Shown here: positions 2,773 to 9,906 of the stretch, piece by piece
Numbering within the stretch: position 1 is the first letter of the stretch
Layout: each line of letters begins with the position of its first letter
Source: a virus
Lineage: Duplodnaviria; Caudoviricetes
Virus record (IMG/VR): IMGVR_UViG_3300025608_000065
Coordinates: 1-30,822 of that record
DNA length: 30,822 bases
Direction: 5' to 3' (one strand)
Notes under the pieces: model-generated
Told to the model about the DNA's origin: nothing
Databases searched by the model: none
Seen by the model: only the letters and a program-made list of their open reading frames with translations
Translations under genes and position numbers: made by a program

Positions 2773-3523
2773 TCTGTGGGTTATACTCCGGTACAAGCAT
2801 CGGATCAATAAAGAACTCTTCGTTAAATCCAAGCAATTCATTATCAAATGAACTTACTTGATCTGCTACCGCTTTTGCAGGGACCTGTGCAACCATGTCC
2901 TCAGGCAAAGCGGCTACAGGCTTTTTTATTTCTTCGTCTACCTCCGCCTGTGCAGCCAACGGAATAACACCTTCACCATCCTGCGTCTTATACTTGTCTG
3001 CTCTGAAGGCCCATCCTGGTAGATACTTGACCTTAATCGGATCATTGAGCACCAAGTCTAAGTAGAAACGCTTACGCTCAGTCGAATAATCATTCGTACT
3101 AATCCCTGCGTTATTCACAGCCTCAGTTGTCATTGGTCCAAGAATACCATCAGCAGAAACACCAGCGAGACGTTGTAGTAACTTCGTTGCCTGTGCAGGT
3201 CCTGCGTTGACTGCCATGTCTACAACGTTCTCTCTTAAGTAATCGTTGTCAATCTTGTCAAAGCCAGGAGCATAGTAGTAGTCCTGTGCATAGATCTCAG
3301 TAGCCTCTTTCTCTGTCAACCCTCTGATATCTTCTTCTGTAATCTCACTTACATCGACTCCACGAAACGCAGCCAAGGCAGTGGGTGTAATACCCAAATT
3401 AGTACCCACAAGTACACCATCGGCATAATTGCCAGTGTCGTCAGGATCGTTTTGAAAGCCACCCTCATTATTTAAAATCCCTTGTATGATGTTCCGTACA
3501 CTATTCGGAATCGTCATGCTCAT
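2765..3523 (-). CDS. Glycoside hydrolase family 108 lysozyme with peptidoglycan-binding region and acidic C-terminal extension
   Basis: NEGGFQNDPDDTG, TNLGIT, DMAVNAG, ADGILGPMT and YLPGWAFR are typical GH108/PG-binding motifs. SD GGAGA before ATG 3523. Confidence 0.85.
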   Translation of the reverse strand: MSMTIPNSVRNIIQGILNNEGGFQNDPDDTGNYADGVLVGTNLGITPTALAAFRGVDVSEITEEDIRGLTEKEATEIYAQDYYYAPGFDKIDNDYLRENVVDMAVNAGPAQATKLLQRLAGVSADGILGPMTTEAVNNAGISTNDYSTERKRFYLDLVLNDPIKVKYLPGWAFRADKYKTQDGEGVIPLAAQAEVDEEIKKPVAALPEDMVAQVPAKAVADQVSSFDNELLGFNEEFFIDPMLVPEYNPQNV

Positions 3524-3938
3524 AAACTTCTCCCTCAGGCTCCTCACCACCTACAATTGTTGTTTCACCGCCTACACCAGTGATCGTAATACTCACTGCA
3601 CTACGTCCATTCGTTGCCTTATCCTTTTCAAAGTAAGATACAGGCAATACCCTGTCCATACACATCTTCAGTGCAGCCATCTGACCAGGGTGTTCATCAT
3701 CTAACGCAATGTTGATGATCTTATTAATCACTTTGTCGCCCGATGTTGCTAACAAGCGGGCCTTAAACTCATTAATCCTTGCAGCATCTCCAGGAGGCCT
3801 ACCACGCACACCTCGATTACCACGCTTCTTAGCCTCTACGTCAGCCTTACGAGGCCTACCACGCTTCGCTGGAGGCTTCTTTTCCTTCTCTTCAAGGATT
3901 TCTACAGTCTGTATTGTTGTTTTCTCATCATTTTCCAT
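3501..3938 (-). CDS. Probable terminase small subunit with AT-hook-like motifs
   Basis: First gene of the packaging operon, 145 aa. Basic N-terminus with KRGRPRK and RGRPPG, followed by a helical core (ALDDEHPGQMAALKMCMDRVLP). Confidence 0.65.
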   Translation of the reverse strand: MENDEKTTIQTVEILEEKEKKPPAKRGRPRKADVEAKKRGNRGVRGRPPGDAARINEFKARLLATSGDKVINKIINIALDDEHPGQMAALKMCMDRVLPVSYFEKDKATNGRSAVSITITGVGGETTIVGGEEPEGEVYEHDDSE

Positions 3939-4027: not shown

Positions 4028-4043
4028 CTGTATAAAATTACAG
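4028..4043. promoter_or_regulatory. LexA (SOS) box 1
   Basis: CTGTATAAAATTACAG matches CTGT-N8-ACAG. Confidence 0.7.
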
Positions 4044-4101: not shown

Positions 4102-4117
4102 CTGTATGTTTATACAG
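4102..4117. promoter_or_regulatory. LexA (SOS) box 2
   Basis: CTGTATGTTTATACAG, close to the consensus CTGTATATATATACAG. Confidence 0.75.
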
Positions 4118-4224
4118 TCTTTTTAGTATTTTTAGCCTCTTGCAAGTCTATGTAGCAACTGCAAAAATAATACAGACTACGTAGCCCTCCCCGGGGCATC
4201 GATGACTCCACAGGCTGCGCAGAC

Positions 4225-4410
4225 TTGGCACGGACTTTGCAGTAGCAAAAACTATGCCAACTTTGCAGGCTACGAAACCTGGCACGATTCTTGCTAGTCT
4301 GCAATAACTATGCCAACCCCCACGCCTATAAAATACTATGCAATTTCTATGCCAACTTTGCAGGCTATGTAGTCCTGGCACAGGCTGTGCATTAGCAAAA
4401 ACTATGCCAA
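4225..4410. promoter_or_regulatory. Array of seven sigma-54 (RpoN) -24/-12 boxes
   Basis: + strand: 4225-4241 TTGGCACGGACTTTGCA, 4279-4295 CTGGCACGATTCTTGCT, 4375-4391 CTGGCACAGGCTGTGCA. - strand: 4244-4260 TTGGCATAGTTTTTGCT, 4300-4316 TTGGCATAGTTATTGCA, 4339-4355 TTGGCATAGAAATTGCA, 4394-4410 TTGGCATAGTTTTTGCT. All have GG-N10-GC spacing. Confidence 0.8.
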
Positions 4411-4428
4411 CTTTGCAGGCTATGTAGT
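4243..4428 (+). repeat. Direct repeats within the control region
   Basis: 30-bp exact repeat TAGCAAAAACTATGCCAACTTTGCAGGCTA at 4243-4272 and 4393-4422. 27-bp CTATGCCAACTTTGCAGGCTATGTAGT at 4347-4373 and 4402-4428. Confidence 0.9.
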
Positions 4429-4471
4429 TGAAGTGTGAGAGTCTATGTAGTACCCACGTAGTTTCAAAAGA

Positions 4472-4487
4472 CTGTATAAATTCACAG
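4472..4487. promoter_or_regulatory. LexA (SOS) box 3
   Basis: CTGTATAAATTCACAG matches CTGT-N8-ACAG. Confidence 0.7.
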
Positions 4488-4509
4488 TACTTCCAAGCCA
4501 GGTTATACT
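4481..4509 (+). promoter_or_regulatory. Sigma-70 early promoter whose -35 overlaps SOS box 3
   Basis: TTCACA (4481-4486)-N17-TATACT (4504-4509), upstream of the first early gene. Confidence 0.6.
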
Positions 4510-4585
4510 TTAGTCTAACAAGCGTGCACAGGCTGTAAAAGCTGTTAAAGTGTCCTCATATTCATTAGATAAAGGAATAAACATC

Positions 4586-4936
4586 ATGAACTACGAAACA
4601 TATACAACAATCATCACAGATCTATTTGAATCGGTGAAGGAAGAACAGCGTCAGTCTAAAGAGGCTTGGAAGTTCGAAGACTGGGATGATTATGTTCATG
4701 TCACAGTTGATGGCAGTGAGCACGTCATATATTACGCTAACGCTTGGGACTTGGTTCATTATGTGCGCCAACATGATTTCAAGCTGTACACTGACTGTGC
4801 AGAATGGTTGGATGAGTTAGGCATGGAATTTACAAGTTTAGATAAACACATTACGATGATGGCGTTCCAGATCTTGAAGCATGAAGTGATGCAGAAAGTT
4901 GAACAGCGTTTTAAACCAATTGAGGAAGTAGCATGA
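4586..4936 (+). CDS. Ocr (T7 gp0.3)-like anti-restriction DNA-mimic protein
   Basis: 116 aa, acidic, first early gene. EDWDDYVHVTVDGSEHVIYYANAWDL aligns by eye with the T7 Ocr core ([25 protein letters not shown], recalled from memory). SD AAGGA. Confidence 0.6.
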   Translation: MNYETYTTIITDLFESVKEEQRQSKEAWKFEDWDDYVHVTVDGSEHVIYYANAWDLVHYVRQHDFKLYTDCAEWLDELGMEFTSLDKHITMMAFQILKHEVMQKVEQRFKPIEEVA

Positions 4937-7752: not shown

Positions 7753-9337
7753 GCACTCAATGGCTTGTGAAGACTGCGGAAGTTCAAGAGGCTTTGCAAT
7801 TGACGATAACGGCTGGGGGACATGTTTCTCTTGTGGAAAGAAAACGCCTCCAGCGTCTACAGAGGCTCACAGTAGTAGGGTAATACCAATGAGACCAAAA
7901 GAATCGCATACAAAGGCTTACAATGCGTCTGAGGGCATAATTCACAGGGCTTTGACGGATAGGAAGATATCTGTGAACGCTATGCAAGCATATGGGGTAG
8001 GGTTCAGAGGTGATGATCTTGTATTCCCGTATGGTGAAGGTGTTGCTGCGAAGGTTCGGAAGAATGGGAATAAAGAGTTTACCATTGAGGGGAACTGGAG
8101 AGAGGCTACAACCCTCTTTGGACAAGAAAGGTTCTCAGGAGGTCAGAAGTATATTCTTGTGGTTGAAGGTGAACTTGATGCCCTATCAGCACACCAGATG
8201 ATGTCCTATAAGACTCCTGTTGTTTCTGTGCGTAACGGTGCGCAGTCTGCGTTGAAGGACTGCAAAGAGAACTATGACTACCTAGACTCCTTCGAGAACG
8301 TAGTCTTTTGCTTTGATGCGGATCAGCCTGGATTAATGGCTCAGGCAAAGTGTGCAGAGTTGTTTAGTCACAAAGCACGTTGTGTGAAGCATGTGAATGG
8401 GCTGAAGGATGCGAATGATTACTTGGTTGATAATCGGTCTGCTGAGTTTGTCAATATCTTTTGGAGGGCTGAGAGATGGACTCCAGATGGTATCGTAGCC
8501 GGTGGTAACCTTTATGACGAGGTAATGAAGCCTTTAGAGAAGGCTGCGTGTGAGTATCCTTTTGATGGCCTGAACAAACTAACCTATGGGATTAGACAAC
8601 AAGAACTGGTCACCGTAACAGCAGGCTCAGGGCTAGGTAAGTCTCAGTTTTTACGAGAGATTATTTGGCATATCCTGCAGAATACTCAGGCCAATATTGG
8701 ATTGATGTTCTTGGAAGAATCAACACGGAAGACTGGGCTGTCTTTGATGTCCTTGGCAGCAAACAAACTACTGCATCTTCCAGACAACGAAGCAACACAG
8801 GCTGAGAAAGATGAAGCATTTAAACAAACTTTGGGTACAGATCGTCTGTTTCTATTTGATCACTTTGGTTCCAGTGATGTGGATAACATTGTTAATCGTG
8901 TCCGCTATCTTGCCAAGGTAGTTGGCTGTGATTACATCTTTGTTGATCACATTAGTATCATCGTCTCTGCGCAGAACAACGGAGATGAGCGTAAAGCCAT
9001 TGACGAGATCATGACGAAACTCAGAATGCTTGTCCAGGAAACCGGAGTTGCATTGATCTGCGTGAGTCACCTAAAGAGACCTGAGAGTCGAGGACATGAA
9101 GAAGGGGCTGCAACGTCTCTGGCACAACTCAGAGGATCAGGCTCTATTGCTCAACTGTCTGATATGGTTATTGGACTTGAGAGAAACGGACAAGCAGACG
9201 ATGAAGCCGAACGTAACACGACGTATGTACGTGTACTCAAGAACAGGTTCAGCGGGATTACCGGCAAAGCCTGTGCATTGCTATACAGTTTAGTTACTGG
9301 TAGAATGACTGAAGTTGATGAAGAGGAGGCTCTATGA
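7739..9337 (+). CDS. T7 gp4-like DNA primase-helicase
   Basis: Zn finger CEDC..CFSC, TOPRIM VVEGELDALS/FDAD and KDAND, helicase AGSGLGKS, FLEE, VDHISI, LRGSGSIAQLSD, KNRFSG. Confidence 0.95.
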   Translation: MAFVKHSMACEDCGSSRGFAIDDNGWGTCFSCGKKTPPASTEAHSSRVIPMRPKESHTKAYNASEGIIHRALTDRKISVNAMQAYGVGFRGDDLVFPYGEGVAAKVRKNGNKEFTIEGNWREATTLFGQERFSGGQKYILVVEGELDALSAHQMMSYKTPVVSVRNGAQSALKDCKENYDYLDSFENVVFCFDADQPGLMAQAKCAELFSHKARCVKHVNGLKDANDYLVDNRSAEFVNIFWRAERWTPDGIVAGGNLYDEVMKPLEKAACEYPFDGLNKLTYGIRQQELVTVTAGSGLGKSQFLREIIWHILQNTQANIGLMFLEESTRKTGLSLMSLAANKLLHLPDNEATQAEKDEAFKQTLGTDRLFLFDHFGSSDVDNIVNRVRYLAKVVGCDYIFVDHISIIVSAQNNGDERKAIDEIMTKLRMLVQETGVALICVSHLKRPESRGHEEGAATSLAQLRGSGSIAQLSDMVIGLERNGQADDEAERNTTYVRVLKNRFSGITGKACALLYSLVTGRMTEVDEEEAL

Positions 9338-9906
9338 GCATTAAGAATCTTAAGAACTATAGCCGCAAAGTAATTGAAATTAAAGGAGAACTTTGGTATG
9401 CAGGCGCTACTAAAGCAGCCCGTCAACGACTTGAATCACATGCAAAGAAAAACCTGACAAGAATGTTTGTAGGTGGTGAGTACATACCGAAATCACATCC
9501 ATTACATAAGCCTGGCCGCTACCCAACTTTCGAGGCTGCATGGTCTCATGAAGACTTAGACAAGATCAATGAAGGTGATGTCTATATTATCAGTAACCCA
9601 GCGTGGCCTGAGTGGTACAAGGTTGGGAAGGCAATTAGTGCTGCAGACCGGTGTCGTGGGTATCAGACCTCAAGTCCGTTTCGTGACTACAAGGTAGAAT
9701 ACTCAGAACACTTTGCAAATCAACACGATGCTGAAACCTATATTCACAACACACTACAAAGCAAAGGAATAGAGTTTCTGAATGAATGGTTTCGTACAGA
9801 CCTAGAAACAATTATCAATGTGATTAAAGAGGTTGATTGTGAAAAAATTAGTGCTAGACATCGAGACGAACACCACCCACAGTACGATTTGGGTCTGTGT
9901 GACTGA
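9334..9906 (+). CDS. T5orf172/GIY-YIG-like nuclease-domain protein
   Basis: VYIISNPAWPEWYKVGKA...R...YQTSSPFRDY...AE..IH..L...EWF pattern. Confidence 0.75.
   Translation: MSIKNLKNYSRKVIEIKGELWYAGATKAARQRLESHAKKNLTRMFVGGEYIPKSHPLHKPGRYPTFEAAWSHEDLDKINEGDVYIISNPAWPEWYKVGKAISAADRCRGYQTSSPFRDYKVEYSEHFANQHDAETYIHNTLQSKGIEFLNEWFRTDLETIINVIKEVDCEKISARHRDEHHPQYDLGLCD

Follow-up and report, generated by a model that had tools for sequence, protein, structure and literature searches.

Sigma-54-type sites and other host-factor look-alikes in a variable slot of the probable terminal repeat of a phage family

The window, meaning the whole 30,822 nt stretch of DNA analysed, is a linear virus record (81% complete) of a marine phage with genes arranged in two arms. 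The minus-strand late arm contains a terS-like gene, an endolysin gene and terL, and the plus-strand early/replication arm contains genes for a methyltransferase, a primase-helicase, a polymerase, an exonuclease and a class Ia ribonucleotide reductase. The terS-like gene at the head of the late arm (3501–3938, minus strand) was named from its position before the endolysin gene and terL and matches no named family; the first gene of the early arm (4586–4936, plus strand) also has no family match. Best matches for the primase and polymerase are to HTVC103P-type pelagiphages (<50% identity). A T5orf172/GIY-YIG-type nuclease gene (9334–9906) is inserted between the primase-helicase and DNA polymerase genes. 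Known anti-RecBCD families were not found among the early proteins scanned, most of which belong to no family. A complete relative, G304, includes portal and capsid genes, and neither an RNA polymerase nor an integrase match was found among its 36 proteins scanned.

The gap between the two arms contains seven sigma-54-type -24/-12 sites, located by pattern match. Sites 1 (4225–4241, plus strand) and 2 (4244–4260, minus) form pair 1, sites 3 (4279–4295, plus) and 4 (4300–4316, minus) form pair 2, and sites 6 (4375–4391, plus, with G instead of T at -15) and 7 (4394–4410, minus) form pair 3, while site 5 (4339–4355, minus) is solo. The pattern TGGCAY-N5-KTGCW has 7 matches across the window, every one inside 4226–4409, whereas shuffles averaged 0.26 matches and never exceeded 2, with 0 of 100 reaching 7. 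All seven sites have TGGCAC and TGC elements at GG-N10-GC spacing, and six face a partner 4–6 nt away. A preliminary description of this DNA had reported seven sites, three convergent pairs, one solo site and differing N5 spacers, and all are present as described. In a second run (X2), a single contig carries the array and differs at three positions within 4226–4409. One difference lies in a spacer and the other two fall in the DNA separating sites; the core bases are unchanged. Pairs 1 and 3 are linked by a 62-nt repeat (85% identity); as the sites are partly related by duplication, they do not represent seven independent inventions. Contigs from the RNA runs X3 and X5 cover late genes only and have no bearing on expression of the array.

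Three CTGT-N8-ACAG boxes, which we take to be of LexA type, were found by motif scan around the array. Two are upstream of the terS-like gene (4028–4043 and 4102–4117), and the third (4472–4487) forms, with a copy of a motif designated X12 (about 4506–4517), a plus-strand segment (4472–4518) that overlaps a sigma-70-like early promoter (4481–4509, 10/12 consensus match). The boxes flank the probable repeat described below with one atop the early promoter, which is odd for a phage in which no integrase was found. Relatives have 13 such boxes on the terS side, 5 on the early side and none inside the slot.

The array occupies a variable slot (4195–4430; 236 bp here, 60–337 bp in relatives) that holds look-alikes of host-protein sites and lies between two anchors with an 11-nt word in common. 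Anchor A (4136–4194, plus strand) is a conserved end element defined by its spacing in relatives, the layout in cobavirus ICBM1 and contig starts. Anchor B (4431–4455, plus strand), defined from relatives and contig ends, is the putative right end of a terminal repeat (about ±10 nt). The left genome cut would fall between 4147 and 4148, with a C-rich tract ending 47 nt later. In relatives, the distance from the putative cut to the end of this tract is 45–49 nt in all 76 rows (76 of 76; a further six loci were too short), and ICBM1 has the same layout (44 nt) at its end, which was mapped with PacBio (PMC6775973). Among loci with anchor B, 3 of 13 contig starts lie no more than 12 nt from the predicted left cut and 2 of 13 contig ends no more than 10 nt from anchor B, in combination 5 of 26 compared with 0.54 expected. 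The slot region is also placed as in T7/Zobellviridae-type repeats, between the late-arm head and the early arm and with a conserved end element. A direct terminal repeat of ~300 bp at about 4148–4455 is therefore likely, on moderate evidence that does not amount to a mapping, and the array would then sit at both virion DNA ends. The anchors, the ICBM1 layout and the contig ends thus lend support to the earlier placing of the array at a genome end, as a probable end. The DNA tip itself would be bare, since sigma-54 sites begin 49–189 bp from the putative left cut. The C-tract was also considered as a reversed KOPS, and this was rejected as the resemblance is seen in some relatives and is absent in others.

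Zobellviridae/cobaviruses (ICBM1, VpV262) likewise have a two-arm genome, no RNA polymerase gene found and a C-rich tract inside the left end. They differ in that no cultured phage matches the terS-like protein of the window, and blastn of the control region also returned no match in cultured phages.

Loci of relatives were collected via terS (80), from genomes (1 more) and via the DNA anchor (64). Three loci ending inside the slot and eight lacking anchor A were removed, and the remaining 129 slots were grouped into 48 clusters; roughly a dozen rows match anchor B only weakly, which makes some right edges of slots uncertain. The 48 distinct slots contain 76 sites in 8.4 kb (9 per kb), compared with 8 sites in the 125 kb of coding sequence from these loci (0.064 per kb) and a total of 0.42 in slot shuffles. 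At least one site is present in 25 of 48 slots. Clustering near the terS/early junction, proposed earlier as a check, is found in part: sites concentrate in the slot near this junction, but arrays of at least three are confined to 13 of the 48 slots. No sites occur in the slots at six other spacer lengths, and it is the GG-N10-GC spacing that relatives keep. Positions left free by the pattern are Y at -27 (75/76), R at -20 (76/76) and -19 (74/76), T at -15 (71/76) and W at -11 (75/76), while -17 and -16 vary. These preferences are those of sigma-54 sites, the elements and spacing being as defined in PMC12316311, and likeness to the strongest E. coli ChIP sites (PMC4591121 Table 1) was judged by eye and not by matrix score. 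The motif is predicted to be a sigma-54-type binding site that binds host sigma-54, and the free positions strengthen the original assignment. Selection on flanks alone recovers 75 intact cores. Cores with a single change number 3 (shuffles, 0.8) and those with two changes 12 (shuffles, 7.3), so decayed copies are rare.

Orientation is not fixed, the 76 sites being divided between the plus (49) and minus (27) strands. Of 20 convergent neighbours, 17 are separated by 3–6 nt, and 9 of 10 divergent neighbours by 19–21 nt, and between-site spacing clusters at 19–22 nt, although shared descent of slots means that these spacings are not fully independent. Site number rises with slot length (rho 0.73). 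All sites are on the same strand in the L011 and L071 arrays, and a same-strand array also occurs in L015; the head-to-head pair, stressed in the preliminary description, is therefore not the essential unit.

Slot content is exchangeable among sister phages, with look-alikes of sigma-54, DnaA, Fur, NtrC, PhaR and Zur sites recognised from sequence. DnaA boxes account for 26 sites in 7 of 48 slots, Fur-like motifs for 13 sites in 7 slots (20 sites in 9 slots with a wider pattern), NtrC-like for 8 sites in 4 slots, PhaR-like for 10 sites in 7 slots and Zur-like for 6 sites in 6 slots, where the names NtrC, Fur, PhaR and Zur are those of the factors that presumably recognise these motifs. X12, a near-palindrome (TAGACTAAAGTA), is present in 23 of 48 slots (34 sites). 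Two or more named sites are found in 26 of the 28 slots longer than 150 bp and in 3 of the 20 short slots, and 12 of 48 contain none of the six named motifs. X12 is often beside TATAAT- and TTGACA-like hexamers and may be the site of a phage regulator at sigma-70 promoters; it was found in 3 of 121 bacterial genomes, beside unrelated genes, and an assignment as an IscR site was considered but not adopted.

Patterns other than those for sigma-54 and DnaA were shaped after viewing the data and hence were tried in 61 bacterial genomes. A glnA or NtrB-type kinase gene adjoins the NtrC-like motif at 11 of the 22 loci examined (of 36 matches), the Fur-like motif is next to a ferritin or TonB receptor gene in 3 of 6 cases and to porin genes in 2, and a phasin gene adjoins the PhaR-like motif in 2 of 5. 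The Zur-like motif has one match in the 61 genomes, with no adjacent gene. Thus three slot motifs, NtrC-, Fur- and PhaR-like, precede expected target genes in bacteria. Counts over bacterial genomes include G042, a genome flagged as unpublished, which enters the counts alone and whose sequence supports no individual claim. Together with the LexA-type boxes, these three would point to a gamma- or betaproteobacterial host. The rpoN gene is present in 44 of 61 genomes sampled from the class to which the motif vocabulary points. Contigs of the phage family occur in archaeal, verrucomicrobial and betaproteobacterial MAGs (L239, L240, L241), probably through mis-binning; these three genome matches (archaeon, Luteolibacter and betaproteobacterium bins) look like mis-binned phage contigs and were rejected as a guide to the host. 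The motif vocabulary may nevertheless help to assign hosts to uncultured phages.

Over a 36-row terminase tree (FastTree, without shuffled control), slot content changes at least three times for sigma-54 arrays and at least six times for DnaA arrays. A tree of terS and terL (quick method, 36 of 38 rows) places sigma-54 arrays in three separate groups with DnaA arrays scattered, and L032 and L035 have near-identical terminases and different slot content. Sigma-54 sites show no significant association with other slot motifs; NtrC sites occur in 0 of the 13 slots with three or more sigma-54 sites, which is not significant. More distant family members carry up to nine sites, or three DnaA boxes then four sigma-54 sites, right after the C-tract, but these loci were chosen for having a pair and show position, not frequency. 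In the L223, L249 and L275 slots, a different ~22-nt tandem unit precedes a single sigma-54 site. Presumed FadR sites lie beside DnaA or sigma-54 sites in the L028 slot and in VpV262, and palindromes that we take to resemble SlmA sites occur in mosaics and freshwater slots (L116, L120, L335, L353).

Outside the family, the convergent sigma-54 pair was found in at least 126 stretches of viral contigs, and 60 of 77 pair-bearing loci have no terS-like match to the phage family of the window. In 17 of 77 pair-bearing contigs, the pair is no more than 700 bp from a contig end (7.3 expected), but this excess was not counted as support because repeats break assemblies. On contig L116, the pair is mixed with NtrC-, PhaR- and Fur-like sites. 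Cultured VpV262 has six sigma-54 sites at 173–346, adjoining (just inside) its mapped 138-bp left repeat, and three FadR-like sites also near this repeat (L282:400-480). Pakpunaviruses (about 50 records) carry a head-to-head pair within a non-coding block; in C2-10_Ab1 this lies ~13 kb from the end of the record. In PAK_P4, a third site lies near the pair (L373:4001-4038, 4175-4191), over which an antisense RNA is annotated from RNA-seq.

The L062 clade has a second block ~1.7 kb inside, composed of a sigma-54 pair and a tandem Fur-like array, and a lone conserved sigma-54 site that faces the early cassette. In G304 (L417:13650-15260), the early cassette of this clade appears to run toward the genome end and is closed by the lone sigma-54 site, the pair and at least six tandem Fur-like boxes, an arrangement that recalls the T5 first-step region. 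A freshwater sister clade has one sigma-54 site in 65 upstream regions, counted over whole regions as automatic anchor finding failed at many loci; anchor A is kept in many of these loci and many of the slots are filled with short tandem repeats. No sigma-54 array is present in CW02, ICBM1 or HTVC103P, which were covered in full, or in RIO-1, LUZ24 or Klyazma, for which the first 3 kb was covered.

The best reading of the array, though its chance is put somewhat below even, is a generic coat of host protein on the ends of a linear genome. The array would lie inside the direct terminal repeat, such that both ends of the injected genome carry it, and host sigma-54 would bind the sites as closed, non-transcribing holoenzyme or as free sigma, giving both ends an immediate coat of host protein before phage proteins exist. 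Occupancy would be selected and not the identity of the bound protein. The coat may aid end handling by holding or ratcheting the first-entering DNA and may slow nucleases or end-sensing defences. We infer the preference for occupancy over identity, the binding, the end-handling role and the repeat boundaries. Generic occupancy is favoured because the substitutes share tight sequence-specific binding by proteins already in the cell, and sigma-54 itself would be dispensable because sister phages fill the slot with look-alikes of the sites of other factors. On this reading, the ends would be coated with borrowed host proteins and RNA would not be made at the slot. Points against a coat are the bare tip, the arrays away from ends in the L062 clade and Pakpunaviruses, the 12 of 48 slots without named motifs, the near absence of sigma-54 sites from the freshwater clade, the lack of an array in the regions covered of RIO-1, CW02, LUZ24, Klyazma, ICBM1 and HTVC103P, and repeat boundaries that depend on analogy and 5 of 26 contig ends.

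Binding of sigma-54 without transcription is documented for silent E. coli ChIP sites (PMC4591121; PMC12316311). Bacterial RpoN sites have the same sequence, spacing and flank preferences as the array but are single and dispersed, whereas the phage has seven in 186 bp and no activator gene was found. RecBCD is reported to cross arrays of 5–50 tight binders, pausing for 9.5 s at a 5x array, and to evict RNA polymerase (bioRxiv 10.1101/142224). An absolute nuclease block is thus unlikely because such arrays are cleared after seconds; the nuclease roadblock proposed in the preliminary description is weakened in its strict form, and the benefit may be a delay, an anchor or a ratchet during entry. 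In Salmonella, the phage resistance that follows rpoN deletion has been traced to glutamine and RpoS (PMC8744999).

The nearest published case in the literature searched is the T5 injection-stop region, where sites for a host protein are likewise arrayed in non-coding DNA of a terminal repeat; a role in DNA entry was proposed, from in silico work only, for its series of eight DnaA boxes in fixed inverted repeats (Davison, bioRxiv 10.1101/866236). T5 has one kind of site in a fixed order about 9–10 kb in, within a 10-kb repeat, whereas in the family described here the probable repeat is ~300 bp and slot content swaps among at least five factors. The slot of the window contains no DnaA box, and no A1/A2 match was found among the proteins scanned, which sets it apart from a T5 injection stop. 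The new part appears to be the exchange of site type within one slot. The literature searched describes no sigma-54 array or swappable host-site slot in phages; the original papers on VpV262, RIO-1 and YuA, the cobavirus Fig. S9 and the bioRxiv supplements are outside its scope and may mention such motifs. Sigma, Fur and LexA are not mentioned in the available text of the T5 DnaA-box paper (10.1101/866236), nor 'sigma' or 'promoter' in the main text of the cobavirus paper (PMC6775973), nor rpoN in the available text of the JG004 paper (PMC3120641).

A decoy or sponge is unlikely. In this case the terminal repeat, present twice and then multiplied by replication, would titrate a host regulator (sigma-54 in the window; DnaA, Fur, NtrC or PhaR elsewhere) and rewire the host late in infection. 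Each genome would bring in 14 sites, rising to hundreds once replicated, a pay-off is plausible for each factor, e.g. iron uptake for the class Ia ribonucleotide reductase, and arrays are also found away from ends. The multi-copy binding sites of datA act by occupancy but are chromosomal, unlike phage arrays. However, the factors targeted by sister phages are unrelated, Fur is too abundant to be titrated easily, and trapped holoenzyme would lock core polymerase needed by a phage with no RNA polymerase gene found. Synthetic multi-copy decoy sites also act by occupancy and regulate genes in E. coli, but these are engineered and titration by phage arrays is only hypothetical (PMC7826281). With >250 host sites reported (PMC4591121), 14 per genome would have no effect at entry, and a decoy could work only after replication.

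Regulation or sensing is also unlikely. Bound factors would act on the promoters of both arms by repression or insulation, making infection responsive to nitrogen, iron, zinc, carbon or the state of replication, and regulators of nutrient use and stress do make up the vocabulary. On both sides, promoters are overlapped or flanked by LexA-type boxes, and in G304 the replication genes come after a tandem Fur-like array. However, the slot of the window has only one weak sigma-70 match (9/12), and the number, strand and identity of sites vary far more than is usual for operator positions. Sigma-54 is reported to repress in E. coli when overlapping another promoter, but intragenic sites are no transcription roadblock (PMC4591121). 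In a sigma-54-specific form, the decoy and the switch of the preliminary description explain less than generic occupancy, as sister slots hold motifs of other factors.

Working sigma-54 promoters driven by a host activator are very improbable, in spite of the near-perfect consensus, the lone conserved site facing the early cassette in the L062 clade and the antisense RNA annotated over the PAK_P4 pair. Ordinary promoters fit badly because convergent sites cover the start regions of each other, leaving paired sites no free start region, because no activator gene was found and because NtrC sites do not accompany the arrays. The PF00158 activator is absent from the window (81% complete) and from five of five relatives including the complete G304, in agreement with the earlier remarks that no activator gene is present and that ordinary promoters are unlikely. 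Non-promoter sites also substitute in the slot, and the pair was found in only 1 of 301 bacterial genomes. Pseudomonas phage YuA also uses host sigma-54 and has a mapped sigma-54-like promoter, but this is a single working promoter and not an array (bioRxiv 10.1101/2023.10.13.562163).

A site for a phage protein, a hairpin signal or neutral duplication has very little to recommend it, for, while pairs 1–3 fold at -7.9, -5.3 and -5.7 kcal/mol, copies arose partly by duplication and freshwater slots tolerate simple tandem repeats, only motif bases pair, folding of pair 3 is not stronger than that of shuffled sequence (z -0.66), same-strand arrays cannot pair, decayed copies are rare and the motif recurs in unrelated phages. 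Weak hairpins, same-strand arrays and exact spacing bear out the earlier preference for protein recognition over a hairpin.

The coat of host protein may be one form of an exchangeable, cis-encoded docking cassette at the ends of lytic phage genomes that recruits whichever tight host binder is available to coat, hold or pull the entering DNA ahead of all phage protein synthesis. Candidates for the recruited protein are sigma-54 holoenzyme, DnaA, Fur, NtrC, PhaR, Zur and FadR, and this wider proposal is possible rather than probable. If true, the strategy would be a general one, with the DnaA boxes of T5 as a fixed example. Survival and entry of a linear phage genome during the seconds that precede protein synthesis are an old open question, as is the role of the interior of short terminal repeats. 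A slot that swaps unrelated host factors is a natural experiment and predicts that the arrays are functionally interchangeable, which is testable in cultured phages, namely VpV262 and, for the pair, the Pakpunaviruses, a ready experimental model. Another cultured phage, the roseophage ICBM1, has a Zur-like palindrome inside its mapped terminal repeat (L283:143-159).
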